From positions 14,722-78,721 of the forward strand of contig JBKJTY010000035.1 in the NCBI GenBank assembly GCA_046590235.1: a stretch of DNA of 64,000 nucleotides, in the 5' to 3' direction. The notes under the pieces were generated by a model, which was given only the letters and a program-made list of their open reading frames with translations, was not told the origin of the DNA and made no database searches. Below, in pieces: positions 20,686 to 58,542 of this stretch. This DNA is from Candidatus Magasanikiibacteriota bacterium. GTDB lineage: Bacteria > Patescibacteriota > Patescibacteriia > Magasanikbacterales > GWA2-37-8. How positions within the stretch are numbered: position 1 is the first letter of the stretch; every line of letters begins with the position of its first letter. Position numbers and translations under genes: made by a program.

Positions 20686-20734
20686 GTCACAGCCCTTTTC
20701 CAATGAAACCTTCTATCCCTTGGAGAAATAAACG

Positions 20735-33271: not shown

Positions 33272-33817
33272 ATGCTAGAAAAAATCGCGGACAAACTACT
33301 GCTGTACCGGCTGCAAGTGAAACAGGATCCTGAAGCCTACGCTAAGCTATACGATGCTTATGTTAAACAAATCTACCGGTTTGTTTATTTTAAGGTTTCG
33401 TCGCATGAAGAGGCGGAGGACATCACTTCAGAAGTGTTTTTGAAAGCGTGGCACTATATACAAGAAAAAAAGGAAATTAAGAGTTTCAGTGGTTTGCTCT
33501 ACCGCATAGCGCGTAACGCAATCATTGATTTATATCGGTCGAAAGCGACCAAGCCAGAGTCACGCCTAAATGAAGATGTAGAAGTGGGGGATGGTGGTAA
33601 ATGGTTTGCGGACATCAACACGAAAGTGGAGAGTCACCGCGTGATCGAAGCGATAAAAAAATTAAAACAAGAATACCAAGAGGTTTTGACCTTCCGGTAT
33701 GTCGATGAACTTGAAACGGGTGAGATTGCAGAAATTCTAGGAAAGAGCAACCTGACAGTCCGGGTGACGCTCCATCGAGCGGTTTCTAAATTAAAAATGT
33801 TACTAGAAAGTAAATAG
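33272..33817 (+). CDS. ECF-type sigma-70 family RNA polymerase sigma factor
   Basis: Region 2 (YRFVYFKVSSHEEAEDITSEVFLKAW) and region 4 (LTFRYVDELETGEIAEILGKSNLTVRVTLHRAVSKLK); 181 aa from the internal Met. Confidence 0.7.
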   Translation: MLEKIADKLLLYRLQVKQDPEAYAKLYDAYVKQIYRFVYFKVSSHEEAEDITSEVFLKAWHYIQEKKEIKSFSGLLYRIARNAIIDLYRSKATKPESRLNEDVEVGDGGKWFADINTKVESHRVIEAIKKLKQEYQEVLTFRYVDELETGEIAEILGKSNLTVRVTLHRAVSKLKMLLESK

Positions 33818-33831
33818 TATCGTATAAACGT

Positions 33832-35190
33832 ATGAGTAAGGACATTGTCCGACAACTCAAACAGTTAAAACATGACACGGTTAACCCACGAAGTGAGTGG
33901 GTTGCAACAAACCGTGCTCTTTTGCTTTCTCAGATTAAAAACACGCTTCCAGTAGAACCGGTCATCTCGACTGAGAAAAAGCTGGAAAAAATATGGGCAG
34001 CAATGGCTATTTTCTTACCTCGCCCTTTAGTGTATAATGTAGTTCGTCCAATCGGTGTCCTGTTACTCGTCAGTTTTGTAGCTACTAGTGCTTACTCAAG
34101 TACAGTGAAAGCTTCGTACGAGACTTTGCCAGGTGATTGGCTTTATCCAGCTAAACGCACAGCAGAACGTGCACAAGGAGCAGTAATCTCGCTCTTGGGT
34201 GACCAGAATACTGAAACAAAGTTTCATGTCAGTCTGGCACAACGTCGCGCTTCGGAAGTTAAGCAAATCATTGCCATAAACGATCCGGCAAAAGTTGCAA
34301 ACGTTGGCACAACGGTAGCCGAGCTCAAAAACGAATTGAATTCAATCAATACAAAGCTCGAACCCGGATTAAACACGATGCATGCGGATACTGCGAAAGA
34401 AGTAAAACAAAACACTGAAGCGATTAAAGATACGCTCCAGGATGTCAAAAATACTTTGTTACTCAGCTCATCAAGCACCAATAAAACATTGTTGCAGGTA
34501 GGAGAAACAAAAGATTTGGCTAAAGATATTTCAGTGAATGCCATGGAAGCCATGGTAGTAAAACATCTTGAAGGCGACAACACAGTCTCAAGACAAGATG
34601 TTAAAAATGCTCTTGATACTTCAATTGCTAATGTAGCAGTCGACGTACTCGCTTCCAAACAAACAGTTGATGGTGCGAAGACAATCGTAGACAGTGTCAA
34701 AACGCAAGTTACTGATTTAACAGGTGAAATAACAAAACAAAAAACTGAAAGTTCGCTCGCAACAACAACGCAAGCGTATAATCAGAAGTTAACCGATGCG
34801 GCTTCGCAAACAAAAGAAGCTTCCATCCAGACCGATCAAGTAACGGCAGCGGTTGATAAAAAAATCGATGAGGTGCGACAAGCGGTTAGTGATGATAATC
34901 TGACAAAAGCAATCGATAATCTCAAAGAAGCAAGTGAAGCAACAAAACAAGCTGAAAAAATTTCTGACACAACCATTTACACAACGCAGGCGGTACTCCC
35001 GATTGTACAGGTTATAAAAGATGCAACTGCGCTGGCTACCATTATCACTTCTTCCACTTTAAATGTATCGACTACAAAAGATATATTTTCTCTGGCTAGT
35101 ACGTCGCTCATGAGTCCGTTACTTAATGCGCCGATCAGTACTAGTACAAAGATGGTAAGTGAAAGTGTAAGTTCTACCGTTAAAAGATAA
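33832..35190 (+). CDS. putative anti-sigma factor / membrane-anchored coiled-coil protein
   Basis: One TM segment after ~60 aa, the motif ETLPGDWLYPAKR, and a long T/K/Q-rich helical region. It lies immediately downstream of the ECF sigma factor. Confidence 0.4.
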   Translation: MSKDIVRQLKQLKHDTVNPRSEWVATNRALLLSQIKNTLPVEPVISTEKKLEKIWAAMAIFLPRPLVYNVVRPIGVLLLVSFVATSAYSSTVKASYETLPGDWLYPAKRTAERAQGAVISLLGDQNTETKFHVSLAQRRASEVKQIIAINDPAKVANVGTTVAELKNELNSINTKLEPGLNTMHADTAKEVKQNTEAIKDTLQDVKNTLLLSSSSTNKTLLQVGETKDLAKDISVNAMEAMVVKHLEGDNTVSRQDVKNALDTSIANVAVDVLASKQTVDGAKTIVDSVKTQVTDLTGEITKQKTESSLATTTQAYNQKLTDAASQTKEASIQTDQVTAAVDKKIDEVRQAVSDDNLTKAIDNLKEASEATKQAEKISDTTIYTTQAVLPIVQVIKDATALATIITSSTLNVSTTKDIFSLASTSLMSPLLNAPISTSTKMVSESVSSTVKR

Positions 35191-35411: not shown

Positions 35412-38400
35412 ATGTCGAACGTATTAAAAGTAGGTAAAAAAGTACTTACAGTTGGTACAGTCATGAGCACTATGCTCTGGTCTGTCGGCGTAGCAGCATT
35501 GTTGCCAGTGGCAGCTTCAGCAGCTACTTGCCCAGCATTCAAGTCAGGCGACTTGTTAAAGGTAACTGGTAAACCAGCTATCTACGCTGTTGATTCCAAC
35601 GGTAAGGTTCTCTATTTCCCATCTGGCGATGAATTCAAAAGTTGGAATGTAGACGAAAAATACAGTGGTTACACAACTGTTTCTCAGGAATGTTACGACG
35701 CAATGCCAGTGCCTTCAGCATCACCATTCGGCGTTAACTACCGCGCAGGTTCAAACATCGTAAAACGCTCATCTTCTGATCAGCTTTACGTTGTTCAACC
35801 AGGCAACAAATTGGCAAAGATCACTGTAGATGCTGCTAAAGCTCTCTATGGTACATCTTTCAAAACAATGACTGTTGCTGATGTTTTCTGGCCAAACTAC
35901 TCCGCTAACCGCGGTGCAGATGTGACAGAAGCTAAAGCACACCCAGGTATGCTCGTCTCAAACGGCGGCAAAACTTGGTACGTTGATGCAGACGCTAAGT
36001 TGTGGGAAGTAACCGCAGCTGGTATGTCAGCAAACCGCTTCAAGGCTGCTTTTGTCCGCCCAGTAGCTGCTTCTGCAGTTGCAGGTTTGGTATCTGGTGG
36101 TGTTCTTGATGCATACAACGCAATGGTTGCAGACCGCACTCAAACTGGTGGTGGTTCTGCAGTTGTCCCAGGCACAGTTGTAACAGGTGGAGCTTTGACA
36201 GTCTCATTGGCTGCAAGTAACCCAGCTGGCAACAACTTGGCTTCTGGTTCAGCTTTCAACCAAGTTCTTAAATTGAACTTGTCTGCAGGTTCCCAGGACG
36301 TTTCTGTTACAGGCTTAACATTCCGCAAGAGTGGTTTTGCTGCTAACACAGTAATCAGTGGTCTCGATATCATCGATTCCTCTGGTACACGTCATGGCAA
36401 TGTTGCTTCCTCTGTTAACGCTGATAACGATGTCACTTTGCTTTTTGCAGGTGCTCCTATCACTGTTAAAGCAGGTACAACTGAAACTGCTACTCTCCGC
36501 ATTAACTTGGGAAGTACAGCTACAGCTGGTACACTTTCATTTAGTCTCTTGAACGCAAGTTCAGTCACATCTAACGGTTCCGTTGGTGGTTCCTTCCCTG
36601 TAGCTGGTAACGTATTTACCCTACAAAATGCTGGTAACTCCTTAGGTTCTGTTACTTTGGACGAAGCTGCAATCAGTGGTGCTAATGGCACAACATTAAA
36701 TGTTGATCCAAACAACCAGCAAGAAATTGCTAAATTCTCTTTCGCTGCTGGTAGTAATGAAGCTGTTAAACTCGGCAAATTGACTCTTTACAACAATGGT
36801 ACAGCTAGTGACAGTGATGTCATGGATGTGCAATTGGTTGCACAAGATGGTTCCGTTCTCGCTACTGCTCAGCAGGTTAACAAGAACGTTAACTTCGATT
36901 TGTCTGCAAACCCTTACTTGATCGACAAAGGTCAAACTAAGAGTTTGACTGTTCGCGCTAAAATCGTGAACGGCGCAGCTCGCACAATCCAATTCGTTGT
37001 TTACAACGACTACGATGCAGTGTTGACAGGTGTAAGTACAGGTACAAGTATCCTTTCAGTTGCAGGTGCTACTGACACTTCATTCCCAATCGGCAATGCA
37101 GGTGCTACTTACAACCAAGTAATAGTTGGTAGTGGTTCTATTTCCTTCAACAAGGATTCTAGCTCACCATCTGCTTCTGTTGCTCCAAACACAAGCGGCG
37201 TTGTTTTAGCAAAATACTTTGCTAAACCAACTGGCGAAAGTATGGAATTGCGCAAAATCGCTCTCGGCTTGGTAACAAGTACAGCTCAGGACATGTTCTC
37301 TGGATCCTTCACGGTGAGAGTTAACGGTGCTGCTGTATACAGTGGTTCACCAGACGCGGTTGTTAACCATGCTACTGTTTTGACTTCTATCACACTTTCA
37401 ACATACCCAACGTTGATTGCTGGTCAGAACAACTACATCACAGTTGAAGCTAACATCGATTCACAAGCTACAGGCGGTGCAACAAACATCGTCTACATGG
37501 ATTTGACTGAAGTTAAACGTTTGGTAACAAACGACATCACAGATCCAGGTGTTGGTATCTCACAAGCTAACCAAATTACAGTTCAGGCTGCTGCATTGAA
37601 AGTAACCACATTGGCTACTCCAGTTGCACAGTCAATCGTAGTTGGTACAAGCAACTTCATCTTAGCTCAATTCGAATTGAATCCTTCTTCCGTATCATCT
37701 GGTGAAGATGTACGCGTAAGTAAGATCATCGTTTCTGACGTTAAGACTGGTAGTGCAGCTTATACTGATATCTCCAACTTAGTTCTCTACGATCAGAATG
37801 GCAATGCTATTGCTACTTCTGCAAGTACTGCAACTAACGCAGCTTCTACAACATTCACATTTGCTAACGCTCTAGTAATCCCTAAGACGGGTTCTGTTCT
37901 GTTGACATTGAAGGGTGACGTAGTTGCTCGCGCAGGTTCAGGCACACACACATTCTCAGTAGTTAACGCTGCTGAAGTAACAGTTACAGGCAAGGATACA
38001 GGTAACTCTGTAACTCCATCTGTCGGAAACGGCAGTGGTCAAGCTATGACTGTTGCTACATCTGGCACACTCAACTTATCATTGGTATCTGGCACAAACG
38101 GTGCTCCTTCCAGTGACCAGGTTGTTACTGTTGGTCAGACTAATGTTCCAGTCTTTGCTTTCAAATTAACTGCACAGAACGAGCCAATCAAAGTTACAAC
38201 TTTGAAACTCACTGCTACAGGTACTTTGAACACAGTAAACGACTTGTCAAACATCAAGTTGTACCGCAACAATGAAACCACTCCATTTGCTTCTGCAAAT
38301 CAGATGGCTTCCAGCTCTGCAATCACAAACACTTCAACAGTGTTCACATGGACTGCAACTGACAACTTGCTTGCTGAAGCTGTTCAACCAGGCACATCCG

Positions 38401-39116
38401 TTACTATCTATGTCAAAGCTGACATCGGTATTGCTAACCAGGCTGTCCTCGGTGATAGTTTCCGCTTCGCAATCTTGGATGCTTCCACTGATCTTGTAGC
38501 AAAAGGTGCTTCAAGCGGTGCTTCAGCATCAGTTGCTGGTACTGCAGCTGTTGTAGGCAAAACCTACATCACTCCATTTAGTGTCAGTGTCACTGCAGAT
38601 GCTCCAACAGCAGGCAGTAGTGTTACACAAGCTATCTTGGCTGGTACACAGCTCGCTCGTATTAAGCTCACAAACAATGGTAGTGCTAAGGTCACTATTA
38701 CTGGCATCAAATTCACTAACAGTGGATCAACTGCTGGTACAACAAGTACCTTCAAACTTTGGTACTCTGACCAGAACTCTACTAACTATCTTGGTACTGT
38801 AGCTTCAAGTACAATGGGCTTCACAAACACATTGTCAAACATCGACTTTAGTAGCTTGGCAACAGCTGGTTCAACCTTCACTATTGATGGTGGTACTAGT
38901 CGCTATGTTACAGTAACAGTCGCTGCTTTAGGTGGTTCTTCTACATCTGGTGATACTTACCAGTTGTCTATCGCTTCAGTTGGCGATATCACCTATACTG
39001 CACAGGAAACCGATCTTGGTTACGACTCAAACAACACTGGCGGCGCTCTTTCAGGTGCTTCCAACACATTGTTTGCAGAAGGCAAACCAAGTATGGGCAC
39101 ATTGGTTAAACAATAA
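35412..39116 (+). CDS. giant secreted repetitive surface protein (S-layer-like), 1234 aa
   Basis: Signal peptide. Extremely S/T/A/G/V-rich with ~100-aa periodic beta-rich modules (..LTLKGDVVARAGSGTHTFSV.., ..IKLTNNGSAKVTITGIKFTNSG..). Strongly biased codon usage (gct/ggt/act/tct/gtt), about 220 nt of 5' leader, and a strong terminator. Confidence 0.55.
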   Translation: MSNVLKVGKKVLTVGTVMSTMLWSVGVAALLPVAASAATCPAFKSGDLLKVTGKPAIYAVDSNGKVLYFPSGDEFKSWNVDEKYSGYTTVSQECYDAMPVPSASPFGVNYRAGSNIVKRSSSDQLYVVQPGNKLAKITVDAAKALYGTSFKTMTVADVFWPNYSANRGADVTEAKAHPGMLVSNGGKTWYVDADAKLWEVTAAGMSANRFKAAFVRPVAASAVAGLVSGGVLDAYNAMVADRTQTGGGSAVVPGTVVTGGALTVSLAASNPAGNNLASGSAFNQVLKLNLSAGSQDVSVTGLTFRKSGFAANTVISGLDIIDSSGTRHGNVASSVNADNDVTLLFAGAPITVKAGTTETATLRINLGSTATAGTLSFSLLNASSVTSNGSVGGSFPVAGNVFTLQNAGNSLGSVTLDEAAISGANGTTLNVDPNNQQEIAKFSFAAGSNEAVKLGKLTLYNNGTASDSDVMDVQLVAQDGSVLATAQQVNKNVNFDLSANPYLIDKGQTKSLTVRAKIVNGAARTIQFVVYNDYDAVLTGVSTGTSILSVAGATDTSFPIGNAGATYNQVIVGSGSISFNKDSSSPSASVAPNTSGVVLAKYFAKPTGESMELRKIALGLVTSTAQDMFSGSFTVRVNGAAVYSGSPDAVVNHATVLTSITLSTYPTLIAGQNNYITVEANIDSQATGGATNIVYMDLTEVKRLVTNDITDPGVGISQANQITVQAAALKVTTLATPVAQSIVVGTSNFILAQFELNPSSVSSGEDVRVSKIIVSDVKTGSAAYTDISNLVLYDQNGNAIATSASTATNAASTTFTFANALVIPKTGSVLLTLKGDVVARAGSGTHTFSVVNAAEVTVTGKDTGNSVTPSVGNGSGQAMTVATSGTLNLSLVSGTNGAPSSDQVVTVGQTNVPVFAFKLTAQNEPIKVTTLKLTATGTLNTVNDLSNIKLYRNNETTPFASANQMASSSAITNTSTVFTWTATDNLLAEAVQPGTSVTIYVKADIGIANQAVLGDSFRFAILDASTDLVAKGASSGASASVAGTAAVVGKTYITPFSVSVTADAPTAGSSVTQAILAGTQLARIKLTNNGSAKVTITGIKFTNSGSTAGTTSTFKLWYSDQNSTNYLGTVASSTMGFTNTLSNIDFSSLATAGSTFTIDGGTSRYVTVTVAALGGSSTSGDTYQLSIASVGDITYTAQETDLGYDSNNTGGALSGASNTLFAEGKPSMGTLVKQ

Positions 39117-39248: not shown

Positions 39249-41321
39249 TTGCTTAACTTTACTATGCGTGAAACTATTGAAAAAGTCATTCGTCTGCTAC
39301 TCTACTGCACATTTTTTGTTCCATTAGTGGTCATGCCGACATCATTTATTTTTCCGTTTATCGTTCCAAAGATTATATTGTTTAGAACCATTGTAATCTG
39401 TATGGGCGCAGGGTACACCATGCTACTCTTTAGTAGTTGGAAAAATTATGCGCCGCGTCTCACCCCGGTTACAGGTGCTCTCTTGGCTTTTTTACTCAGC
39501 TTTACCATTTCAACCTTTGTTGGCATAGACACTTATCACAGTTTTTGGGACAATCATGAACGCATGCTTGGTCTATTTACGATTGCCCATTACGTTCTAT
39601 ACTATTTTGTTCTCAGCGCTGTTTTGAAAACATGGTCGGATTGGAAAACTGCTTGTAAATTATTTTTAATTGCCGGCTCACTTGTCATGTTTGTTGGTTT
39701 AATTCAAGCTGCAAACCCGTATTTCTTGTTAAATGGCGGCAGTGACCGTGTGGCAAGTACGCTTGGCAACTCAATCTACGTCGGGGCATACGGTCTATTT
39801 TTGATCTTTTTAAGCGTACTGATATTTTTGCGTGAAAGCGATGTATTATGGAAGTGGATTACAGTAGTAACTACCTTTTTAGCTTTTTGCGGCATTCTCT
39901 TTAGTGGAACTCGTGGTGCAATTCTTGGCTTAATGGCTGGGATTTTGACCGCAGTTGTGCTCTACATCGTATGTTTAAAGGACCATCTCCGAACAAGAAA
40001 AATGCTAACGGGGATTATTGCGGCCGGCGTAATTATAACTGGAGTAATGTATGTAAACCGCACAAGCGAATTTGTTCTTAACATTCCAGCTGTCAGCCGT
40101 GTACTTAACACTTCAGTTGAGAGTGTTAAGAATAGTCCTCGCGCTTACGCGTGGAAAGCAGCTGTTGAGAGTTGGAAAGATAAACCAGTATTTGGTTGGG
40201 GTCCAAACAATTTTTACTACGCCTTTAATGAAAATTACAATCCGCACACGTTACGTTTTGGCTATGGTGAAACATGGTTTGATAATGCGCATAACATTAT
40301 TCTAAATACCTTAGCAGTCCAAGGCATGTTTGGGGTTATTAGCTACTTAGCGATATTTTGTGCCGGGGTGGTTATGCTAAATCGCGCCCATAAACAGCAG
40401 CGAATTAATATACATCTGTTTGTTGTTGGTACAGCTTTTCTAGTGGCGCATTTAATCCAAAATATTACCGTTTTTGAAAATCCAACATCATACCTATATT
40501 TTATGTTCTGGTTAGCGATGATCAATCGTATGACCCAGGTAGTAGAAACTGTTGATGTAAAAAGCAGTAAACCATTTAAAATTGTTAAAACATTTCATGT
40601 TGTCGTTGTTGGTGGTTTTGCCTTGATAGCAAACCTCATATTCAACTTTGAACCTGCTTCTGCAAACATGCAAACGTTAGCAACTATTCAGGCAATGAGT
40701 TCAGATCCAATTCGTGCTTTACCAGCAATCCAAGACACACTCAATAGAAACTCACCGCATATCGATGATATAAGAAACGATGTTGGTAGACAATTAATTG
40801 ATATCGTAGCAAATAACCATGAAAAGTTGGGCAAAGACAGAAGTATGCAACTTTTATTGGTTGCAGATGAAGCTTTACAGAAAAATTTGGTGTTACACCC
40901 GCGTGATATTCGAATTCATTTATTGATTGCTCAGCTTGATCAAACCGCTCTCCAGATAACCAACCAGCCACAATTCTTAATAGCAGCCGAAGAGTATACG
41001 CAAAAAGCGCTTTTGGAATCACCTCGACGTCAACAAGTAATCTATAGTTTGGCTAATATAAAGTTACAATTAGGTAAAAATGATGAAGCTATCGCCTTGC
41101 TACGAGGGGCGCTCAGTGATGATTCGACGATCGCTGAAACGTATTGGCGGCTAATGGTTGCCGAGAAAATGGCAAACCATGAAGATAAAGTTAAAGAAGT
41201 GTACTCGTTAGCTCAGCAAAACAAGATCACTTTTACTGCGGAAGAACAACAGATCGTTAACCGTGTTTTACTAGCTCCTCCTCCTACACCAGCAGCTGAT
41301 GTAAAGAAAGGTGTAAAATAA
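39249..41321 (+). CDS. O-antigen ligase/Wzy_C-family membrane protein with a C-terminal TPR-like domain (possible O-oligosaccharyltransferase)
   Basis: About 12 TM segments; motif LFSGTRGAILGLMAG typical of the WaaL/PglL family; C-terminal ~250 aa is a soluble helical-repeat region. Confidence 0.55.
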   Translation: MLNFTMRETIEKVIRLLLYCTFFVPLVVMPTSFIFPFIVPKIILFRTIVICMGAGYTMLLFSSWKNYAPRLTPVTGALLAFLLSFTISTFVGIDTYHSFWDNHERMLGLFTIAHYVLYYFVLSAVLKTWSDWKTACKLFLIAGSLVMFVGLIQAANPYFLLNGGSDRVASTLGNSIYVGAYGLFLIFLSVLIFLRESDVLWKWITVVTTFLAFCGILFSGTRGAILGLMAGILTAVVLYIVCLKDHLRTRKMLTGIIAAGVIITGVMYVNRTSEFVLNIPAVSRVLNTSVESVKNSPRAYAWKAAVESWKDKPVFGWGPNNFYYAFNENYNPHTLRFGYGETWFDNAHNIILNTLAVQGMFGVISYLAIFCAGVVMLNRAHKQQRINIHLFVVGTAFLVAHLIQNITVFENPTSYLYFMFWLAMINRMTQVVETVDVKSSKPFKIVKTFHVVVVGGFALIANLIFNFEPASANMQTLATIQAMSSDPIRALPAIQDTLNRNSPHIDDIRNDVGRQLIDIVANNHEKLGKDRSMQLLLVADEALQKNLVLHPRDIRIHLLIAQLDQTALQITNQPQFLIAAEEYTQKALLESPRRQQVIYSLANIKLQLGKNDEAIALLRGALSDDSTIAETYWRLMVAEKMANHEDKVKEVYSLAQQNKITFTAEEQQIVNRVLLAPPPTPAADVKKGVK

Positions 41322-42783: not shown

Positions 42784-44304
42784 ATGTATTTTATCAAAAA
42801 GAACGCAATTATTTTAAGCGGAGTTAGTTGGTTGCTTGTGGCTTTTTTTTCAGTAATTCGGTATGCCGCTATTTTTAACTATAAGTGTTACTTTCTAACT
42901 AATTCATTTTTGTGCCGTACGGAGATTACAAGTAGTGAAAAAGTAATGCTTTTTTTACTTATTACAACTTTCATAGTAGGTGCGATTATTGGGGGGTATG
43001 GAATATGGAAGAGGTATACTGCTGGAGAAAAAGTCTTGCCGTATGAAGGTAAAAAAGCGTACGCTCTTGTGGCCAGCTTTGTGCTGCTAGCGTCGCTGAC
43101 TATTCCGTTTGGTTCAGGGGATTTTTCATATTACTTTAATACTGGGAAAGCTTTTTATCAAAATCAAAACCCATTTGTTGATGAGCGGAACATCGAGCAA
43201 CCCTTTGTAGGTCATGGTAAAGTGTCATCCCTGACCGGATTTACGTATGGGCCGTTAGCCGGGCTGGTCTTTGAAAGGTTTTACGCGTTTAGCCACGATA
43301 GTCAAATTTATTTCATAACTCTTTGGAGACTGTTTATTATCCTCATTACTCTAGCTTGTTGCGGTACAATTGTTAAAATTATCCGCTTGCTTGGTTCAAA
43401 AGCTGAATACGCTAATTGCGCACTAGTATTACTTTTGCAACCGCTCTTTTTATTTGAAGTCATAGTTAATTGTCACTTTGACTTACTGTGGTTATTATTT
43501 GTATTACTGGCGCTATGGGCTGCTATCTTAAAGCGCTGGTGGCTCGTTATTCCGCTGCTTAGTATTGGGATATGGCTCAAATTTATACCGTTACTTTTGA
43601 TCCCATTCTTTGCGTTGTGGTGGTGGCAAGAACTCACAATGGTTAATTGGAAAAAAAGAGTAACAGAAATCGCTCTTAGTAGTTTAGTTGCTGCAATTAT
43701 AACTGTAGTAGCTTGGTGGCCGCTATGGGAAGGTTTTCGTGTGTTTGACTCCTTTATGCTTCAGACAAAATGGGCGGCAAACAGCATCTTCGCAGCTCTC
43801 TACTATTCATTAAAACCAAGCTTTGTTTGGTTATTACAGGATAAGGCCCACTGGTTTTTGACCAGACTCTTGCAAGGCTCGCTTATTATGTTTGGAACAT
43901 ACTTACTACTACCATATATAAAAAAAGTCTTCGCGGTAATTCGGAAAAAAGAACATTTAGCGCCATATGAATATGTGCAAATGATGTTCATTTCTCTTGT
44001 AGTGTATTCCTCACTGATTCAAAAGTCATTTTGGCCCTGGTACATTATTTGGTTGTTACCGTTTGGGGTCATAGTCTATGAAAAAACAAAAAACGTTTTG
44101 TTGGGGCAGCTATTAACATGGTTGAGTCTGGCACCATTAAGTTTCTATCCCATTTGGCAACTTAATTGGGCAATCTTTAAGACAGACGCTGCTGCAACTA
44201 CTTGGTTTTGGTGGGTCCTTTTCATACTAATTTGGGTTTACCCACTTTCAAGATTGATTAAAATGAGAAAAAGTAATTTTGAACAACCAATCGACTCTAT
44301 TTAA
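42784..44304 (+). CDS. polytopic membrane protein, putative GT-C fold glycosyltransferase
   Basis: 506 aa with about 12 TM segments; positioned downstream of the DPM1-like synthase. Confidence 0.35.
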   Translation: MYFIKKNAIILSGVSWLLVAFFSVIRYAAIFNYKCYFLTNSFLCRTEITSSEKVMLFLLITTFIVGAIIGGYGIWKRYTAGEKVLPYEGKKAYALVASFVLLASLTIPFGSGDFSYYFNTGKAFYQNQNPFVDERNIEQPFVGHGKVSSLTGFTYGPLAGLVFERFYAFSHDSQIYFITLWRLFIILITLACCGTIVKIIRLLGSKAEYANCALVLLLQPLFLFEVIVNCHFDLLWLLFVLLALWAAILKRWWLVIPLLSIGIWLKFIPLLLIPFFALWWWQELTMVNWKKRVTEIALSSLVAAIITVVAWWPLWEGFRVFDSFMLQTKWAANSIFAALYYSLKPSFVWLLQDKAHWFLTRLLQGSLIMFGTYLLLPYIKKVFAVIRKKEHLAPYEYVQMMFISLVVYSSLIQKSFWPWYIIWLLPFGVIVYEKTKNVLLGQLLTWLSLAPLSFYPIWQLNWAIFKTDAAATTWFWWVLFILIWVYPLSRLIKMRKSNFEQPIDSI

Positions 44305-44313: not shown

Positions 44314-45348
44314 ATGAATCAAAATACACCTAAAAAAGCACTTATCACTGGTATTACTGGGCAAGACGGCTCCTATCTTGCTGAGTTTTTATTAGAAAAG
44401 GGGTATGAAGTACACGGGATTATTCGTCGCTCAAGTAGTTTTAATACTGGACGCATTGACCATCTTTTTAAGGATCGACATGAAAAGAATGTTCGCCTCC
44501 ATCTTCATTATGGAGATTTAACTGATGGTACTAACTTAGAACGCATTCTTGCGAACGTGAAACCTGATGAAATTTATAACCTTGGTGCGCAGAGTCATGT
44601 AAAGGTTAGTTTTGAGATGCCAATCTATACAGCTGAAGCTGATGGCCTGGGAACAATACGCTTACTCGATGCAATTAAAGAATCTAAGTTGCCAATAAAA
44701 TTTTACCAGGCTGGTTCATCTGAAATGTTTGGTAAAGTTCTGGAAGTTCCACAGCGTGAAACTACGCCGTTTTATCCACGTAGCCCGTATGGGTGTGCCA
44801 AGGTGTTTTCTCATCATATTGCTGTAAATTATAGAGAAGCGTACAATATGTTTGTCTGTAACGGCATATTGTTTAACCATGAATCACCTCGTCGAGGTCA
44901 AACATTTGTTACTAAAAAGGTCACTAAGGGTTTAGCAAACATCAAGCTCGGCAAACAAGACGTGGTGTATGTTGGTAATCTAAATGCTAAACGCGACTGG
45001 GGTTTTGCCAAAGATTATGTTGAAGTGATGTGGCTTATGCTGCAGCAAGACAAGCCGGATGATTACGTTGTTGCAACAGGAGAAACACATAGCGTGCGGG
45101 AAATGATTGAAGTTGCTGGCAGTTATCTTGGTTTTACAATTACTTGGAAAGGTGAAGGTTTAGATGAAGTTGGTATTGATGCAAAAACCGGTAAGACAAT
45201 TATTAAAATTGATCCAGAATATTTCCGTCCGTCCGAAGTCGATCTGTTAATTGGTGATGCTACTAAAGCTAAGCAAAAATTAGGCTGGGAGCCAAAAGTT
45301 GGCTTTAAAGAGTTGATCAAAATTATGTGCGAAGCTGACCTCGTCTAA
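44314..45348 (+). CDS. gmd: GDP-mannose 4,6-dehydratase
   Basis: [43 protein letters not shown]. Confidence 0.85.
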
Positions 45349-45365
45349 GAGAACTAATTACTTAT

Positions 45366-46535
45366 ATGATAAAACTTATCAAATCATCGTTTTATAACGA
45401 AAAAAAAACTAAACGTGCTTTAATAAGCTTTATAAAAAAAGCCAAGATTTTTAGCATGAACGATGAATGTGCCCGTTATGAGATTGAATTTGCTAAGAAA
45501 CAGCAACGTAAACATGCGGTATTTGTCAGTAGTGGCAGTATGGCAAATTTGGTTGTATTACAAGCTTTGTTAAATCGTGGTGATCTAAAGGTGGGGGATA
45601 ATGTAGGCGTCTCTGCTCTAACATGGGCCACTAATATCATGCCAATCATACAATTGGGCTTGAAGCCGGTTATAATGGATTGTAGTATAGAAAACCTTAA
45701 TGTCACCGCAGAAACGGTTATTGAAACATTAAAAAAATATAAACTTAAAGCTTTTTTTATCACGCATGTCCTAGGATTCTGTGCTGATATTGCTAAGATT
45801 AAAAAAATCTGTGATCAGGAAAAAATTATTCTTCTCGAAGATACGTGTGAGTCGCTTGGGTCAAAAGCAGAAGGAAAACTACTGGGGAACTTTGGTTTAG
45901 CCAGTACTTTTTCCAGCTTTGTCGGCCACCACTTTTCAACTATTGAAGGTGGAATGATCTGCACTGACGATTCAGAATTGCATGAGTATTTAGTAATGGC
46001 ACGTGCGCATGGTTGGGATAGGAATCTTACTCCAAAACAGCAGGCAGCTTGGAGAAAAAAATACAACATAGACGAGTTCTATTCTAAATACACCTTTTAT
46101 GATCTAGCTTATAACGCCCGTCCAACTGAAATCCAAGGTTTCATAGGTAAAACAACTATTGGCTATTGGAATACAATCGTTAAAAAACGTGAAGGACATT
46201 TTAAAAAACTACATAAAGCAACACTGGAAAACCCAGACATACTTCCGTTGAAGGTGGGTCATATGGATGTTGTGTCTAATTTTGCTATGCCGGTTGTTTT
46301 CAAAAGCAAAGAGCTTTGGAAGTTGTATCGTACCCGTTTTGAAAAAGCTAAAGTGGAGATCAGACCTATTATCGCTGGTAATATGTCAAAACAACCCTTT
46401 TTCACCAAGCGTGTAGCGAAAGGACAATCTTGCCCGGGGGCTGCGTTTGCTCACGAGAACGGCTTCTACTTTGGTAATAATCCAGAGTTAACCAAGAAAG
46501 AAGTGCAACAGCTCTGTACATTGCTTAAAAAATAA
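45366..46535 (+). CDS. DegT/DnrJ/EryC1-family PLP enzyme with His-His replacing the Schiff-base Lys (ColD-like GDP-4-keto-6-deoxymannose 3-dehydratase)
   Basis: FSSFVGHHFSTIEGG at the position where aminotransferases carry SxxxK. Confidence 0.55.
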   Translation: MIKLIKSSFYNEKKTKRALISFIKKAKIFSMNDECARYEIEFAKKQQRKHAVFVSSGSMANLVVLQALLNRGDLKVGDNVGVSALTWATNIMPIIQLGLKPVIMDCSIENLNVTAETVIETLKKYKLKAFFITHVLGFCADIAKIKKICDQEKIILLEDTCESLGSKAEGKLLGNFGLASTFSSFVGHHFSTIEGGMICTDDSELHEYLVMARAHGWDRNLTPKQQAAWRKKYNIDEFYSKYTFYDLAYNARPTEIQGFIGKTTIGYWNTIVKKREGHFKKLHKATLENPDILPLKVGHMDVVSNFAMPVVFKSKELWKLYRTRFEKAKVEIRPIIAGNMSKQPFFTKRVAKGQSCPGAAFAHENGFYFGNNPELTKKEVQQLCTLLKK

Positions 46536-46537
46536 TT

Positions 46538-47491
46538 ATGGAAAAACAAGCAAAAATTTACGTCGCTGGTCATAAGGGGTTGGTTGGTTCAGCAATTAAA
46601 CGTGCGTTGGAACGCGAGGGTTATACCTCGATAATTGTGAGAACGCATCAAGAATTAGATCTATTGGATCAGCATGCCGTTGAAGAATTTTTTAGCCACG
46701 AACAGCCGGTGTATGTTTTTTTAGCGGCAGCAAAAGTTGGCGGAATAGTCGCTAACATGGCTGCGCCAGCTTCGTTTATCTATGAAAATGTTCAGATTCA
46801 GAATAGCATCATACACGCTTCCTATAAGCATGGTGTTAAAAAACTATTATTCTTAGGTACTTCATGTATCTATCCGCGCGTATGTCCGCAACCAATGAAA
46901 GAAGAGTATCTATTAACAGGTCCTCTTGAGCCGACTAACGAAGCATACGCATTAGCCAAAATTACAGGCATTAAAATGTGCCAGTATTATGACGTGCAGT
47001 ACCAGACAGACTTTGTTGCCGTCATGCCACCTAATATCTACGGCTACAATGATACCTTCGATTTACAGCGCTCTCATGTCATTCCAGCGTTGATCCGTCG
47101 TTTCCATGAAGCCAAGGTCGCAAATAGCCCAACAGTGACCCTGTGGGGAACGGGTACTGCCCGCCGAGAATTCTTATTTGCCGATGATGTGGCAGAAGCC
47201 TGTTTGTTTTTTATGGATAACTTTAAGCCGTCTGAGGAGCAGGTTAAAAAAGGTGAGATATTCATGAATGTAGCGGCTGGAACGGACCAAACCATCGCCG
47301 AGCTTGCCAAAGTGGTCGCGTCAGCGGTAGGGTATACGGGCACGATTGCCTGGGATACTACCAAGCCTGATGGTATGCCTCAAAAGCTGCTTGATACCAC
47401 TAAAATGACAACTCTGGGTTGGCGGCAAAAAACGAGCTTAGAAAAGGGTGTCGCCCTGACATATCAATGGTATTTAGAAAATCAGCCTTAA
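46538..47491 (+). CDS. fcl: GDP-L-fucose synthase-like epimerase/reductase (Fcl/ColC-like)
   Basis: KIYVAGHKGLVGSAIKR, an SDR Rossmann fold, 317 aa. Confidence 0.75.
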   Translation: MEKQAKIYVAGHKGLVGSAIKRALEREGYTSIIVRTHQELDLLDQHAVEEFFSHEQPVYVFLAAAKVGGIVANMAAPASFIYENVQIQNSIIHASYKHGVKKLLFLGTSCIYPRVCPQPMKEEYLLTGPLEPTNEAYALAKITGIKMCQYYDVQYQTDFVAVMPPNIYGYNDTFDLQRSHVIPALIRRFHEAKVANSPTVTLWGTGTARREFLFADDVAEACLFFMDNFKPSEEQVKKGEIFMNVAAGTDQTIAELAKVVASAVGYTGTIAWDTTKPDGMPQKLLDTTKMTTLGWRQKTSLEKGVALTYQWYLENQP

Positions 47492-47498: not shown

Positions 47499-48314
47499 AT
47501 GGAAACCATAATTCGACCAAGAAAAAAAATTACGCTACGGGATTTTACTGAGTTAGTTCAGTATCGTGAATTATTGTATTTTTTCACCTGGCGTGATGTT
47601 AAAGTCAGGTATAAACAAACCATGCTTGGTGTAATGTGGGCTATTTTTCAACCCGTCATCACCATGGTAGTGTTTACCATCTTCTTTGGTAAATTAGCAA
47701 AAATTCCTTCAGATAATATCCCTTATCCAATTTTTGTGTATGTCGGCTTGCTTATTTGGCAATTTTTCTCCACATCACTCAATGAAACAAGTGATTGTCT
47801 GGTACAAAATAAAGCCATTATTACCAAAGTCTACTTTCCACGCTTATTGTTGCCATTTTCTTCAGTCATTACAAAGTTTGTAGATTTTTTCATCGCTTCG
47901 TTAGTCTTAATCGTATTAATGGCTTACTATCATTACTTACCTAATATTTTAGGATTATTTATCTTGCCACTCCTATTGTTTATCTCATTTTTAGCAGCAT
48001 CCGGCGCAGGTTTACTCTTGGCTTCAATCAATGTAAAATACCGCGATGTCAGATATATTTTGCCTTTCTTTATTCAGCTATTACTCTTCATGACTCCTGT
48101 CATTTACCCAGCGAGTATAGCGGGTAAATATTCGTGGATATTGGCGCTTAACCCTATGACTGGTGTAATTAAGGCGGCACATGCGGCTATTTTGGGCAAC
48201 GCACCTATAAATTGGGTGTTGCTTGGTATTTCAGGCATAATTTCAGCTATCCTGTTTGTGGTAGGAATACTCTACTTTAAAAAGACCGAACGTTACTTTG
48301 CAGATATCGTATAA
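47499..48314 (+). CDS. wzm: ABC-2 type polysaccharide export permease (Wzm/TagG-like)
   Basis: ELLYFFTWRDVKVRYKQTMLGVMWAIFQP; 6 TM segments. Confidence 0.75.
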   Translation: METIIRPRKKITLRDFTELVQYRELLYFFTWRDVKVRYKQTMLGVMWAIFQPVITMVVFTIFFGKLAKIPSDNIPYPIFVYVGLLIWQFFSTSLNETSDCLVQNKAIITKVYFPRLLLPFSSVITKFVDFFIASLVLIVLMAYYHYLPNILGLFILPLLLFISFLAASGAGLLLASINVKYRDVRYILPFFIQLLLFMTPVIYPASIAGKYSWILALNPMTGVIKAAHAAILGNAPINWVLLGISGIISAILFVVGILYFKKTERYFADIV

Positions 48315-48318
48315 ACCT

Positions 48319-49611
48319 ATGGAACCAATTATTAGTGTCAAAAGTGTCAGTAAGCGGTACGATATTACCCATGCTAATGGGAAGTATGTTACCTTGCGCG
48401 ATGTAATGACTAACATACTCAAAAGTCCGTTTAGTTTTCTTAAAAGCAAGGCAAAAAAAGCCTTTCATGGTGAGAATAAAGAAATTTTTTGGGCATTAAA
48501 GGATGTAAATTTTGATATTAAACGTGGTGAAGTCGTTGGTATTATTGGCCGTAATGGTGCTGGTAAATCAACCTTACTTAAAATTCTTTCGCAAATTACA
48601 CCGCCAACCGGTGGTGAAATTACGTTGCGAGGTCGGGTTGGTTCATTGCTTGAAGTCGGAACTGGATTTCACCCTGAATTATCAGGTCGAGAAAACATTT
48701 TGTTAAACGGGGCGATTTTGGGCATGAAGAAAAAAGAAATAATTGCTAAGTTTGATGAAATAGTTGCATTTGCGGGCATTGAAAAATTTTTAGATACTCC
48801 AGTTAAATATTATTCATCTGGCATGTATGTTCGGCTGGCTTTCTCTGTTGCCGCACACATGGAGCCGGATATTTTAATTATTGACGAAGTGCTAGCAGTG
48901 GGAGACGTTGAATTTCAAAAGAAATGTCTCGGAAAAATGAACGAAGTTTCAAAACAAGATGGGCGCACTGTCTTGTTCGTTAGTCATAACATGAATGCTA
49001 TCGAGGATTTATGTTCTCGGGTTTTATACTTCGATAAAGGGGTTCTTATTAAAGATAGTACTAATGTACGCGAGGTTGTAAGTGAGTATATTCGTGGTCA
49101 AGAAGACGGTAATATTGTCACCGAATGGGTTAATAATGGTAAAGAGTATCGTAATCCATATTTCATTCCAGAACGTATTGCTATCGTTGATGAACGCGGC
49201 GATAAAATGGTCATGCCAAAACGGAACGACGCTGAATGCTGGATTCAAATCGAAGGAACAGTTACAAGTCTTAACAAATCTCTGACAATAGGTTACGCAA
49301 TTTTTAGTGAAGAGGGGAATTTGCTCTATTGGTCATTTCATACCGATGCTGAAGAAAATAAGTGGCCCCAATTAAAAATGGGAAAAAATGTGTTGCGAAG
49401 TAAGTTTCCAACTCGGTTATTGAACGAAGGTCTTTATCGTATCGAATTCATAAGCAGCCTACATTTTATCCAGTGGCTAACCGAGCCTGGTGTAAACGCG
49501 CCGGCAGTGTATCTGACTATACAGGGTGGCTTAAGTAATTCACCATATTGGATGATCAAGCGAGCGGGTTTGTTAGCTCCGGTTAACGAATGGTCATCAT
49601 TGAATCAATAA
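48319..49611 (+). CDS. wzt: ABC transporter ATP-binding protein Wzt/TagH-like with a C-terminal glycan-binding domain
   Basis: Walker A GRNGAGKST; the ABC signature region LSGGQ is present as YSSGM; about 180 aa beyond the NBD. The ORF track starts at a TTG at 48298; the ATG at 48319 is preferred. Confidence 0.7.
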   Translation: MEPIISVKSVSKRYDITHANGKYVTLRDVMTNILKSPFSFLKSKAKKAFHGENKEIFWALKDVNFDIKRGEVVGIIGRNGAGKSTLLKILSQITPPTGGEITLRGRVGSLLEVGTGFHPELSGRENILLNGAILGMKKKEIIAKFDEIVAFAGIEKFLDTPVKYYSSGMYVRLAFSVAAHMEPDILIIDEVLAVGDVEFQKKCLGKMNEVSKQDGRTVLFVSHNMNAIEDLCSRVLYFDKGVLIKDSTNVREVVSEYIRGQEDGNIVTEWVNNGKEYRNPYFIPERIAIVDERGDKMVMPKRNDAECWIQIEGTVTSLNKSLTIGYAIFSEEGNLLYWSFHTDAEENKWPQLKMGKNVLRSKFPTRLLNEGLYRIEFISSLHFIQWLTEPGVNAPAVYLTIQGGLSNSPYWMIKRAGLLAPVNEWSSLNQ

Positions 49612-49625
49612 CTATAAAGAAGGAT

Positions 49626-50507
49626 ATGGTTATAATGCAGTTACTCGGTGGTTTAGGAAATCAGATGTTTCAGTATGCGGCAGGAAAAGCACTGGCAACC
49701 CATCATAAAACAGAATTTAAAATTGATACGAGCGGATTTAAAGAGTACGCCTTGCATGATTATGTACTGGATCATTTTATGATAACAGCGGGGGAAGTTA
49801 GTGAGAGTGAGTTACCCTCTGTTAAAGAACGTGCACTGCCCACATCCCGAATATGGCGAAAGTTATATCCGTATGTGCAAGCTTTACGGCCATACCATTC
49901 AAGACGCATTTTTGACGAACCATATTATCACTTTAATAAGCGTTTTTTAAAGCTACCGCCAAATGTTTATATCCGTGGTTATTTTCAAAGTGAACGTTAT
50001 TTTAAAGATATTGAAGATATTATCCGCAAAGAATTTGTAGTAAAACAAGAATATGGCCAGCTGGATCAGTTTTTGGCTGAAAAGCTAAAAACGCATGATG
50101 TAATTTCAGTTCACTTTAGACGCGGTGATTATGTTACCAATAAAGGTATAAACAAATTGTATGGTACGCCGTCATTTGAGTACTATGAAAAATCCATCCA
50201 GCAAATTGCCGCACGCTGCAAAAATCCGTATCTATTTATTTTCTCAAACGACAGCGCGTGGGTTAAAGAAAACTTTACCACACAAGTTCCAAAAACATTT
50301 ATTAGTGATTTCTCAATGAGTAATTTTCAAGAGCTCACTTTAATGTCAAAGTGTCACCACAACGTCATTGCTAATAGTAGTTTTAGTTGGTGGGGTGCGT
50401 GGCTTAATCAAAATCCGTCAAAAATAGTTCACGCGCCATCTCGATGGTTTGTAACTAAAAGGTGGAATACGAAAGATGTTATTCCAAAAAATTGGACGCA
50501 AGTATGA
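49626..50507 (+). CDS. GT11 alpha-1,2-fucosyl(colitosyl)transferase-like glycosyltransferase
   Basis: GT11 motif I LLGGLGNQMFQYAAGKALA. Alternative starts are at 49590 and 49635. Confidence 0.65.
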   Translation: MVIMQLLGGLGNQMFQYAAGKALATHHKTEFKIDTSGFKEYALHDYVLDHFMITAGEVSESELPSVKERALPTSRIWRKLYPYVQALRPYHSRRIFDEPYYHFNKRFLKLPPNVYIRGYFQSERYFKDIEDIIRKEFVVKQEYGQLDQFLAEKLKTHDVISVHFRRGDYVTNKGINKLYGTPSFEYYEKSIQQIAARCKNPYLFIFSNDSAWVKENFTTQVPKTFISDFSMSNFQELTLMSKCHHNVIANSSFSWWGAWLNQNPSKIVHAPSRWFVTKRWNTKDVIPKNWTQV

Positions 50508-53296: not shown

Positions 53297-54025
53297 ATGA
53301 AAGCACTTATTTTAGCTGCTGGTCTAGGCACGCGTTTACGTCCTCTGACTGATACAATTCCTAAGCCCCTGGTTAAAATAGGTGGGCGCCCGTTGCTCGC
53401 TTACCATTTTGATTCTTTGCGGAAACATGGAGTTAATGAAGTTTTGATTAATACTCATTATCTATCAGAGCAAATCAACCATTTTGTTAAAGAGTACTGC
53501 GCTGAACACAGTGATTTCCAAGTAAGTCTTACATTTGAACCTGAACTCATCGGTAGTGCTGGCACATTACGTGCAAATGAAGGATTTTTTAGTAATTGCG
53601 AGGATTTCTTTGTTGTTTATAGCGATAATTTAACCAACATTAACTACAGCCAATTATTGTTAGAGCATAGGTTAAAGAAAGGTATTGCCACAATTGCAAG
53701 CTACTTTGAACCAAATCCAAGTTCTAAGGGAATTATTATTTTTGATAAGAATAATCGAATTGAGCAATTTATTGAAAAACCTCGACCAGAACAAATTGTT
53801 AGTAATATTGCAAACGGTGGTATTTATGTGTATAATAAAGCGATTTTATCATACGTACGGGGCCTAAAGAAGGATCCTGTAGACATAGGTAAAGATCTTT
53901 TTCCGGCTTTGGTGGCTGCTGGAGAAAATATGTACATATATCCAATGAAAGAATTCTTACTTGATATTGGAACTATGGAAGGTTACGATAAAGCAAATAA
54001 CATAATAAATACATTGGAATTTTAA
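53297..54025 (+). CDS. sugar-1-phosphate nucleotidyltransferase (HddC/ManC-like guanylyltransferase candidate)
   Basis: KALILAAGLGTRLRPLTDTIPKPLV; 242 aa, short form. Confidence 0.6.
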   Translation: MKALILAAGLGTRLRPLTDTIPKPLVKIGGRPLLAYHFDSLRKHGVNEVLINTHYLSEQINHFVKEYCAEHSDFQVSLTFEPELIGSAGTLRANEGFFSNCEDFFVVYSDNLTNINYSQLLLEHRLKKGIATIASYFEPNPSSKGIIIFDKNNRIEQFIEKPRPEQIVSNIANGGIYVYNKAILSYVRGLKKDPVDIGKDLFPALVAAGENMYIYPMKEFLLDIGTMEGYDKANNIINTLEF

Positions 54026-57525: not shown

Positions 57526-58542
57526 ATGATTATTGTACGCGCGCCGTTAAGAATCAGCTTTATTGGGGGAGGCACTGACCTGCCTGATTTTTATTCTAGA
57601 TATCCAGGTAGAGTCATCTCAACCACAATAGATAAATTCGTCTATATTACAATCAATCCAATGTATCGTGATGGTCGTTTTATCGTAAAATATCAAACGG
57701 TAGAAACGGTGGAAAAGCCAGAAGAATTAAAACACGACCGTGTTCGTGCGGCATTGCTTGATCTTAACGTCAAAAAAGGTTTGGAATTAAGTTCTTTTGC
57801 GGATATTCCTTCTAAAACAGGTCTTGGATCATCTTCTAGTTTTTCAGTCGCTCTTATTAAAGGTCTTAATGCGTTAGCTGGTAAAACAATGAGTCGCGGT
57901 GAAGCCGCTGAAGCAGCGTGTCGTCTAGAAATTGACCTACTACGAGAGCCGATTGGCAAACAAGACCAATATGCAGCTGCATTTGGCGGTTTTAATATCT
58001 TTCAATTCAATTCTGATCATACGGTAACCGTTGAACCTGTGCTGCTTGATTTTAAAAAGCGTGCGACACTCGAGGATCATGTGTTGCTTTTCTTTACAGG
58101 TATTACACGTCAGGCTTCAAGTGTCTTAGTAGACCAACGCTCAAAAATTGATAAAAATTTTGAAACCTACAAGCAAATGTCCGATTCAGTTTACGATTTT
58201 CGTGACAAATTAGTTGAAGGAGATGTGGCTGGAATGGCAGCAATGTTACACGAAGGATGGTTGCGTAAAAAGAGCTTGAGTGACAAAGTGTCCAACGGGC
58301 CAATAGACAATCTTTATGAAGAAGGTATTCGAGCTGGGGCGCTCGGCGGTAAGGTTTTGGGCGCGGGCGGCGGCGGTTGTTTATTGTTTTTGGCTCCCCC
58401 AGAAAAGCATGCGGCAATCCTGCAAGCGCTTACAGAAAAAGCTAAACAAGAGGGTCTGGGAGACTCCCAAGAAATAAAAGTTAAATGTTCACAATCAGGT
58501 ACTGATATCCTGTTTAATACTAGCTGGCACTCATACACCTAA
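57526..58542 (+). CDS. hddA: GHMP sugar kinase, D-glycero-D-manno-heptose 7-phosphate kinase-like (HddA)
   Basis: IIVRAPLRISFIGGGTDLPDFY; GHMP motif GLGSSSSFSVAL. Confidence 0.65.
   Translation: MIIVRAPLRISFIGGGTDLPDFYSRYPGRVISTTIDKFVYITINPMYRDGRFIVKYQTVETVEKPEELKHDRVRAALLDLNVKKGLELSSFADIPSKTGLGSSSSFSVALIKGLNALAGKTMSRGEAAEAACRLEIDLLREPIGKQDQYAAAFGGFNIFQFNSDHTVTVEPVLLDFKKRATLEDHVLLFFTGITRQASSVLVDQRSKIDKNFETYKQMSDSVYDFRDKLVEGDVAGMAAMLHEGWLRKKSLSDKVSNGPIDNLYEEGIRAGALGGKVLGAGGGGCLLFLAPPEKHAAILQALTEKAKQEGLGDSQEIKVKCSQSGTDILFNTSWHSYT

Follow-up and report, generated by a model that had tools for sequence, protein, structure and literature searches.

The Locus and Its Three Central Genes

The 64-kb window analyzed in this work, a stretch of 64,000 nucleotides with a G+C content of ~40%, comes from a Candidatus Magasanikiibacteriota bacterium, a member of the Patescibacteria, and it carries a gene cluster that may direct the synthesis of a 3,6-dideoxy sugar of the colitose type. 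From about 39.2 kb to the window end the genes of the plus strand run unbroken with very short gaps. Inside this string, at 44314-47491, lie three open reading frames (ORFs), here called the triad, that are separated by intergenic gaps of 17 and 2 nt. The first (44314-45348, 344 aa) encodes a GDP-mannose 4,6-dehydratase, Gmd, the enzyme of the ColB step. The second (45366-46535, 389 aa) encodes a predicted ColD-type GDP-4-keto-6-deoxy-sugar 3-dehydratase, dependent on pyridoxamine or pyridoxal 5'-phosphate (PMP or PLP), in which His188 takes the place of the Schiff-base Lys. The third (46538-47491, 317 aa) encodes an Fcl-type GDP-4-keto-6-deoxy-sugar epimerase/4-reductase, which may fulfil the ColC step. 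These are the same three plus-strand ORFs that a preliminary description of the window had recognized.

The triad is followed by the genes of a glycan exporter, i.e., a Wzm-type ABC-2 permease (47499-48314, plus strand; PF01061, 62.4 bits; galactan Wzm/RfbD model, 79 bits, below its cutoff) and a Wzt-type ABC ATPase (48298-49611, plus strand; PF00005, 83.3 bits; TagH and Wzt models, 170-200 bits). Next comes a GT11 glycosyltransferase of the alpha-1,2-fucosyl/colitosyl type (49590-50507, plus strand; PF01531, 120.8 bits against a cutoff of 23.9). The preliminary description placed this gene at 49626, and the Met at that position is probably the true start. Further downstream GT2 and GT4 transferases, methyltransferases, an acetyltransferase and GalE, which exceeds the cutoff of its model (368 versus 262), are encoded, and upstream of the triad, besides a 506-aa membrane protein, there are a methyltransferase, a GT2, a Wzy_C ligase-like protein and a 1234-aa protein. 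Taken as a whole, this appears to be a locus for a surface glycan or glycoprotein that depends on an ABC transporter.

The ColD-Type Enzyme

The reference ColD, ColC, GT11, ManB/ManC and colanic-acid Gmd and Fcl were taken from Escherichia coli O55:H7 (NC_013941; colitose cluster L021); the fucose cluster of E. coli O156 was also found in the gmd DNA search of E. coli. In a phmmer search against the PDB the best solved relative of the middle protein was ColD (2gms; E 1.3e-54), followed by the CDP-sugar dehydrase E1 (3bcx; E 2.6e-39). Aminotransferases, for example perosamine synthase, appeared much further down (E about 1e-17). The same order was obtained with the fold: the AlphaFold model, with a pLDDT (predicted local distance difference test) of 89.3, gave top Foldseek matches that were all ColD chains (TM 0.86-0.88), then E1 (TM 0.82) and then aminotransferases. 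The protein has the DegT/aspartate-aminotransferase fold (PF01041, 183.9 bits), and RfbH is its best NCBIfam match (188 bits; cutoff 423).

The motif FSSFVGHHFSTIEGG, residues 182-196, was aligned by phmmer with FSSFYSHHIATMEGG of E. coli ColD. The first His of FSSFVGHHFSTIEGG corresponds to the residue replaced by Lys in chain 2r0t (H188K) and by Asn in chain 3b8x (H188N), hence it occupies the position of ColD His188, where aminotransferases have the Schiff-base Lys. The numbering coincides, so that the query residue is also His188. In a set of 120 homologues (58-67% identity) His188 never varies and the conservation of His189 amounts to 99%, and no Lys is present at or adjoining position 188. 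The substitution of His for Lys claimed by the preliminary description is thus confirmed. Moreover, Asp159, Glu162, Ser183, Arg219, Asn250, Arg252 and Arg333 are common to ColD and reach at least 98% conservation across the 120 sequences. Position 187 is always Gly in these homologues, versus Ser in ColD, and the identity to E. coli O55 ColD is only 33%, which is no close relationship to the characterized ColD enzymes, whose mutual identity is 62-67%. Judged from the sequence, the nearest characterized relative is ColD, yet the protein sits in a separate, uncharacterized clade of Patescibacteria.

Could the middle protein be something other than a ColD-like dehydratase, that is, a transaminase acting via another residue, an E1-like Fe-S enzyme or an inactive paralogue? 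Such a reading can draw on the identity of only 33%, on Gly in place of Ser187 and on cysteines of the clade, but several observations speak against it. There is no Lys at or beside position 188. The CxC...C cysteines that bind the [2Fe-2S] cluster of E1 lie in DCYCAPGCDNTC, an insertion absent here, and the aligned query segment DRNLTPKQQAAW is cysteine-free; the lack of this motif sets ColD apart from E1 and SpnQ. No E3-like reductase gene was found among the family matches in the locus. Decay of the enzyme is excluded, since conservation within the clade reaches at least 98% in 93 columns. Taken together, we regard this reading as very improbable.

The cysteines in question are C35, C106, C149, C161 and C199, each at least 94% conserved in the Patescibacteria clade and only C161 being common to E. 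coli ColD. The other four stand at Val or Ile positions of ColD and are probably residues of the buried core. An Fe-S cluster held by these conserved cysteines was considered and found unlikely, given the Val/Ile positions and the absence of the region with the E1 motif.

A single 4.7-kb Logan contig, whose gene order is the same, was the only other place where an exact copy of the ColD-like protein was found. The named relatives come from assemblies of Patescibacteria, Magasanikbacteria, Peregrinibacteria, Parcubacteria and Saccharimonadales, and the clade, large and divergent, is annotated in the sources as DegT-family aminotransferase or CDP-sugar E1 dehydrase. Under PGAP, genuine E. coli ColD is likewise named as a generic aminotransferase. 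The clade so annotated is probably one of GDP-sugar 3-dehydratases.

Gmd and the Fcl-Type Enzyme

The preliminary description had named the two flanking genes gmd (colB) and a colC-like gene. For gmd this holds. The protein passes the curated equivalog TIGR01472 with 579.9 bits (cutoff 415; PF16363, 520.8 bits), it is 58% identical to E. coli Gmd proteins, and the SSE and YGCAK catalytic motifs are readable in its translation. It scores 490 bits to human GMD and 450-490 bits across Gmd structures, versus only 134 bits to the GDP-heptose 4,6-dehydratase of Campylobacter jejuni (7us5). By these scores it is an orthodox mannose-type enzyme and not one of the heptose-dehydratase type.

For the third gene the earlier assignment stands in part: an enzyme of the Fcl family is indeed adjacent, but it does not belong to the enterobacterial ColC clade. 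The protein is 53% identical to E. coli Fcl (369 bits to 1bsv) and 39% to E. coli O55 ColC, which itself is about 40% identical to Fcl. On the GDP-L-fucose synthase model (GDPFucSynFcl) it reaches 451.9 bits, below the cutoff of 500, where E. coli Fcl scores 551, the orthologue from a Peregrinibacteria locus (L013) 446 and E. coli ColC 304 bits. The TSC, YxxxK (YALAK) and SHVIPAL motifs, which cover the Ser/Thr-Tyr-Lys triad and the Cys/His pair for epimerization, align with both E. coli Fcl and ColC; since the catalytic residues are conserved in the two alike, only the overall similarity could separate them, and by this measure the protein groups with Fcl and not with characterized ColC. The ColC-like role of this Fcl orthologue is therefore deduced from the gene order. 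Such a role would make chemical sense. Colitose is 3-deoxy-L-fucose (3,6-dideoxy-L-xylo-hexose), thus the C5 epimerization and C4 reduction carried out by Fcl, when applied to the product of ColD, give colitose. It is equally conceivable that the enzyme turns the Gmd product directly into GDP-L-fucose.

Gene Neighborhoods of the ColD-Like Clade

Loci related to the triad were gathered from genomes (10), from exact look-ups (7) and from metagenomes (80, by an alignment-based scan that gave at least 500 matches). After removal of duplicates and of three distant loci (L009-L011), 89 distinct loci of the ColD-like clade were retained. Neighbors were counted in the 55 loci where both of them are visible, and ManB/ManC and heptose genes in the 38 loci that offer 12 kb or more of flanking sequence. 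The Fcl-like ORF of L008 (Gracilibacteria) was left out, as it contains 25 stop codons under table 11. Gmd is found within 3 kb of the ColD-like gene in 42 of the 55 loci and an Fcl-like gene within the same distance in 27, and the exact same-strand order gmd-colD-fcl recurs in 19. The adjacent Gmd lends indirect support to the predicted glutamate-dependent C3 deoxygenation of a GDP-4-keto-6-deoxy sugar. In 6 further distinct loci, too, a GT11 homologue lies close to the ColD-like gene, and the GT11 of the window is 33% identical to the sole GT11 in the colitose cluster of E. coli O55 (L021, 21227-22099).

These neighborhoods bear on the proposal that Gmd and Fcl produce mainly GDP-L-fucose for the GT11, with the ColD-like enzyme diverting only part of the 4-keto intermediate, so that a mixture of fucose and colitose would be formed or the product of that enzyme would enter another sugar. 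The third enzyme does resemble Fcl more closely than ColC (53% versus 39% identity; 452 versus 304 bits for ColC on the Fcl model), the E. coli GT11 is annotated as alpha-1,2-fucosyltransferase, and about half of the loci have a ColD-like gene with no Fcl-like neighbor. However, in the window the ColD-like gene is set between gmd and fcl with gaps of 17 and 2 nt, and the recurrence of this order is hard to explain unless the three enzymes act in sequence. There is also no second Fcl-like gene in the locus that could take over the product of ColD, and the invariant catalytic residues argue for an active dehydratase. We therefore hold a mainly fucose-producing locus to be rather unlikely.

The closest ColD-like homologues (67% identity; L015 10001-11212, L016 10001-11164 and L022 4142-5302) occur with thiamine-diphosphate enzymes and have no Fcl-like gene, from which it follows that the clade feeds more than one end product. 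In L015 and L016 the thiamine-diphosphate enzymes are joined by an HMGL/DmpG-like aldolase, by additional short-chain dehydrogenases and by a second DegT protein of ~430 aa, and L012 and L017 carry B12-radical-SAM enzymes. Such neighbors point to 3,6-dideoxy sugars with C-branches or methyl groups (yersiniose-like) among other members of the Patescibacteria. In two assemblies labeled Gammaproteobacteria (L003 and L004) the ColD-like genes are 52-55% identical to that of the window and have no Gmd- or Fcl-like neighbor within 10 kb; these could be mis-binned contigs of Patescibacteria or could reflect a different use of the enzyme.

Hexose or Heptose as Substrate

The preliminary description had suggested GDP-heptose as a substrate of the triad, since the locus also contains genes of the GDP-heptose route and no manB/manC pair was visible. 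Those genes are indeed there, all on the plus strand and in the same gene string as the triad: an HddA-like GHMP kinase (57526-58542), a GmhA-like SIS isomerase (58547-59143), a GmhB-like HAD phosphatase (59147-59653), each matching the respective Pfam family (GHMP, SIS and HAD), and the short sugar-1-phosphate nucleotidyltransferase at 53297-54025 (242 aa; PF00483, 141.6 bits), which is a candidate HddC and the sole nucleotidyltransferase of this kind in the window. All fall below the curated NCBIfam cutoffs (HddA 167 against 600, GmhA 96 against 209, GmhB 146 against 178, HddC 84 against 300 bits). The kinase gives 165 bits to the heptose kinase WcbL (4usm).

The heptose module has an orthologous module in L013 (36-43% identity), and its pairing with the triad is seen there as well, i.e., in the Peregrinibacteria lineage L013/L072. 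In L013 a fused nucleotidyltransferase-GmhB protein of 426 aa (19584-20864, minus strand) adjoins a GHMP kinase and a SIS isomerase, which looks like a compact GDP-heptose module; the transferase domain of the fusion scores higher on the mannose-1-phosphate guanylyltransferase model than on HddC. The nucleotidyltransferase of the window matches the N-terminal domain of this HddC-GmhB fusion (32% identity, 118 bits) and gave no match to ManC-type queries. It too ranks man1P_GTase_Rv (105 bits) over HddC (84 bits) in NCBIfam, a ranking that is uninformative because the L013 fusion ranks likewise. Its top PDB match is a UTP-glucose-1-phosphate uridylyltransferase (130 bits); both UDP-glucose and GDP-mannose pyrophosphorylases are among its PDB matches, and HddC ranks below them. 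The gene lies beside GalE.

As for the supply of GDP-mannose, no ManB or ManC homologue was found in the whole 64 kb with E. coli or Patescibacteria queries, in agreement with what the preliminary description had noted, and no sugar-phosphate mutase or isomerase was found in the upstream half of the window. The absence of ManB/ManC says little, since 33 of the 38 related loci also lack ManB and ManC nearby. A ManB and/or ManC homologue is present in the remaining five (L002, L026, L033, L035 and L057), the ManC of L002 having the ManC beta-helix domain, and any heptose gene in only one of the 38 (L013/L072).

Precedents for both substrates exist. C. jejuni HS:5 and HS:11 are reported to make GDP-3,6-dideoxy-L-ribo-heptose as well as GDP-3,6-dideoxy-L-xylo-heptose using a ColD homologue, by a route that comprises a heptose 4,6-dehydratase, the ColD homologue, a separate C5-epimerase and a separate C4-reductase (PMC10440746). 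A 3,6-dideoxyheptose would thus be less unusual than it was called in the preliminary description. The ColD homologues of C. jejuni are 62-67% identical to hexose ColD (PMC10440746) and also accept a 6-hydroxy heptose. Hexose and heptose enzymes being so alike and the 6-hydroxy substrate being taken, the ColD-like protein is uninformative on the substrate, and it is the 4,6-dehydratase that is informative. The dehydratases do discriminate: DdahA, the heptose enzyme, gave a low yield on GDP-mannose and the Gmd HP0044 a high one (PMC7949155).

Does the triad, then, act on GDP-heptose and yield GDP-3,6-dideoxy-L-xylo-heptose with three enzymes? The heptose module in the same plus-strand string, the sole nucleotidyltransferase with its match to the HddC domain of L013 and to no ManC-type query, the absence of ManB/ManC from the window, the recurrence of the pairing in Peregrinibacteria and the tolerance of ColD homologues for a C7 substrate, as described for C. 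jejuni, all speak in its favor. On the informative enzyme, however, the evidence points the other way, as Gmd belongs by its scores (580 bits with TIGR01472; 490 bits to human GMD versus 134 bits to 7us5) to the mannose type and is 70% identical to the Gmds of L035 and L057, which have ManC nearby and no heptose genes nearby. Among the 38 loci ManB/ManC genes are five times commoner than heptose genes (5 versus 1). Furthermore, the known heptose pathway uses a separate cupin C5-epimerase and a reductase, and no cupin or dTDP_sugar_isom domain was detected among the scanned cluster ORFs of at least 150 aa. GDP-heptose as the substrate is in our judgment improbable. If this reading were true, the route would be distinct from the four-enzyme Campylobacter pathway and a dideoxyheptose would be a surface sugar of Patescibacteria.

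The Proposed Pathway and Its Relation to Known Systems

The interpretation that we favor, and to which we assign a moderate likelihood, is that Gmd, the ColD-type and the Fcl-type enzyme convert GDP-mannose into GDP-L-colitose, that the GT11 transfers the sugar, that Wzm/Wzt exports the glycan and that the heptose module supplies a second sugar. First, Gmd would oxidize and dehydrate GDP-D-mannose to GDP-4-keto-6-deoxy-D-mannose. Then the ColD-type enzyme would form a Schiff base between PMP and the sugar, His188 would abstract the C4' proton and expel the 3-OH, hydrolysis would release GDP-4-keto-3,6-dideoxy-D-mannose and ammonia, and L-glutamate would regenerate PMP without a reductase partner; for this step the ColD mechanism is used as given in PMC8987622 and in PMC10440746. 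Subsequently the Fcl-type short-chain dehydrogenase would epimerize C5 and reduce C4 with NAD(P)H, giving GDP-L-colitose, and the GT11, presumably with this nucleotide sugar as donor, would place the L-sugar onto the glycan. Finally, Wzm/Wzt would export the glycan, whose attachment would probably be carried out by the Wzy_C ligase-like protein.

The prediction of a GDP-colitose-like sugar made in the preliminary description is supported by ColD as the best match in sequence and fold, by the invariant His, by the missing Fe-S insertion of E1 and by the recurrent gene order. Several points weigh against it: the low identity to ColD and the Gly187 of the middle enzyme, the possibility that the third enzyme, which groups with Fcl, makes GDP-L-fucose directly, the lack of an Fcl-like gene next to the closest homologues, the lack of ManB/ManC in the window, the likeness of its sole nucleotidyltransferase to an HddC-type enzyme, and the presence in the same string of a heptose module, a pairing that recurs in one Peregrinibacteria lineage.

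The closest model is the GDP-L-colitose pathway (ManC/ColA, Gmd/ColB, ColD and ColC) that serves Gram-negative O-antigens, as in E. coli O55 and O111, Yersinia pseudotuberculosis and Vibrio cholerae O139, whose same three steps are predicted here. The catalytic His188, the lack of the Fe-S motif, the adjacent Fcl-family enzyme and a GT11 in the locus, as in E. coli O55, are shared. The differences are that the ColD-like protein of the window shares only 33% identity with ColD and carries Gly187 in place of Ser, that the reductase is an Fcl orthologue, that the cluster contains no manB/manC, that the host is a patescibacterium and that export would proceed by Wzm/Wzt, versus Wzx/Wzy in E. coli O55. 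The acceptor is likely a wall glycan or a surface protein and not lipopolysaccharide.

The dideoxyheptose pathway of C. jejuni HS:5, HS:11 and HS:45 resembles the window in a ColD-type C3-dehydratase that acts on a GDP-4-keto-6-deoxy sugar and in genes of the GmhA, HddA and HddC type in the same locus. It differs in its heptose-specific 4,6-dehydratase (to which Gmd of the window gives 134 bits), in its separate cupin C5-epimerase and C4-reductase, and in a dehydratase that is 62-67% identical to ColD, compared with 33% here (PMC10440746). With the GDP-L-fucose pathway (Gmd and Fcl/WcaG) the window shares a pair that look like orthologues (58 and 53% identity to E. coli) and a GT11, but a ColD-type gene is inserted between the two, an arrangement conserved in many Patescibacteria. 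The CDP-3,6-dideoxyhexose pathway (E1/RfbH/AscC and E3) has the same fold and the same substitution of His for Lys. The window, however, lacks the insertion with the [2Fe-2S] cysteines and an E3 gene, its protein is of 389 aa versus 437 aa for E1, and the neighboring gene encodes a GDP-mannose dehydratase, not a CDP-glucose dehydratase.

A different kind of likeness is offered by the S-layer glycan (slg) clusters of Geobacillus and Aneurinibacillus. These combine export by an ABC transporter, a Wzy_C-type ligase or oligosaccharyltransferase, methyltransferases, and supply genes for GDP-sugars and GDP-heptose that adjoin a large surface-protein gene. Going by this general description of the clusters, the same features are found in the window. 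To our knowledge, slg clusters have not been reported to contain colitose.

Surface Sugars of Patescibacteria

The Patescibacteria, very small bacteria of which most are uncultured, live attached to host cells, and we know of no experimental data on their surface glycans. It is chiefly from Gram-negative pathogens, as antigenic determinants, that 3,6-dideoxy sugars have so far been known. With 89 distinct loci and at least 500 metagenome matches, they may be a common surface decoration in Patescibacteria. The colitose pathway itself was predicted earlier across many phyla (PMC7725333), and a literature search gave, within the library searched, no paper that links Patescibacteria or CPR to colitose or to S-layer glycosylation. 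What is encoded here is most likely a known pathway in a new host. As the chemistry is that of textbooks, the value lies in the annotation of the clade and in a concrete target for glycan analysis rather than in a new mechanism.

Accompanying Genes of the Window

Directly upstream of gmd lies the gene of the 506-aa polytopic membrane protein (42784-44304, plus strand), probably a GT-C glycosyltransferase. The copy of the window has no Pfam match. Homologues with 35-37% identity adjoin Gmd or ColD-like genes in L012, L015, L016, L022 and L023, and those of L012, L015 and L016 carry a precomputed PF26314 (MptA_B_family, GT-C mannosyltransferase). By this distribution the protein is a conserved partner of the module.

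The C-terminal extension of the Wzt ATPase, ~170 aa (167 aa scanned), has no Pfam match. In E. coli O8/O9a such Wzt extensions bind the methylated chain end. Three methyltransferases are encoded in the locus, at 42048, 54028 and 62028.

The 1234-aa protein (35412-39116) is rich in Ser, Thr, Ala and Gly, has an N-terminal hydrophobic segment and no Pfam match, and is a candidate S-layer or surface protein. Its gene is followed at 39249-41321 by that of the Wzy_C (O-antigen ligase-like) protein, which is of 690 aa with 323 aa beyond the matched domain. This pair suggests O-glycosylation of a protein, much as in the S-layer glycan loci of Gram-positive bacteria. An ECF-type sigma factor (Sigma70_r2/r4) and a DUF5667 protein, possibly an anti-sigma factor, are encoded at 33164-35190, immediately upstream of the gene for this candidate surface protein.

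At the other end of the string a partial ORF (62657-64000) runs off the window and contains a PMT_2 domain (dolichyl-phosphate-mannose-protein mannosyltransferase-like, 38.5 bits). Upstream of it, at 61308-62018, there is a GT2 that resembles polyprenyl-phosphate-sugar synthases, and this succession suggests that sugar donors of the lipid-phosphate kind also serve the locus outside the membrane.

The upstream half of the window is occupied by fermentative core metabolism (10167-11603 and 24753-29510), with genes for pyruvate kinase, an ADP-forming acetyl-CoA-synthetase-like protein and a 2-oxoacid:ferredoxin oxidoreductase, and the cell-division genes ftsA and ftsZ are located at 6589-9255.

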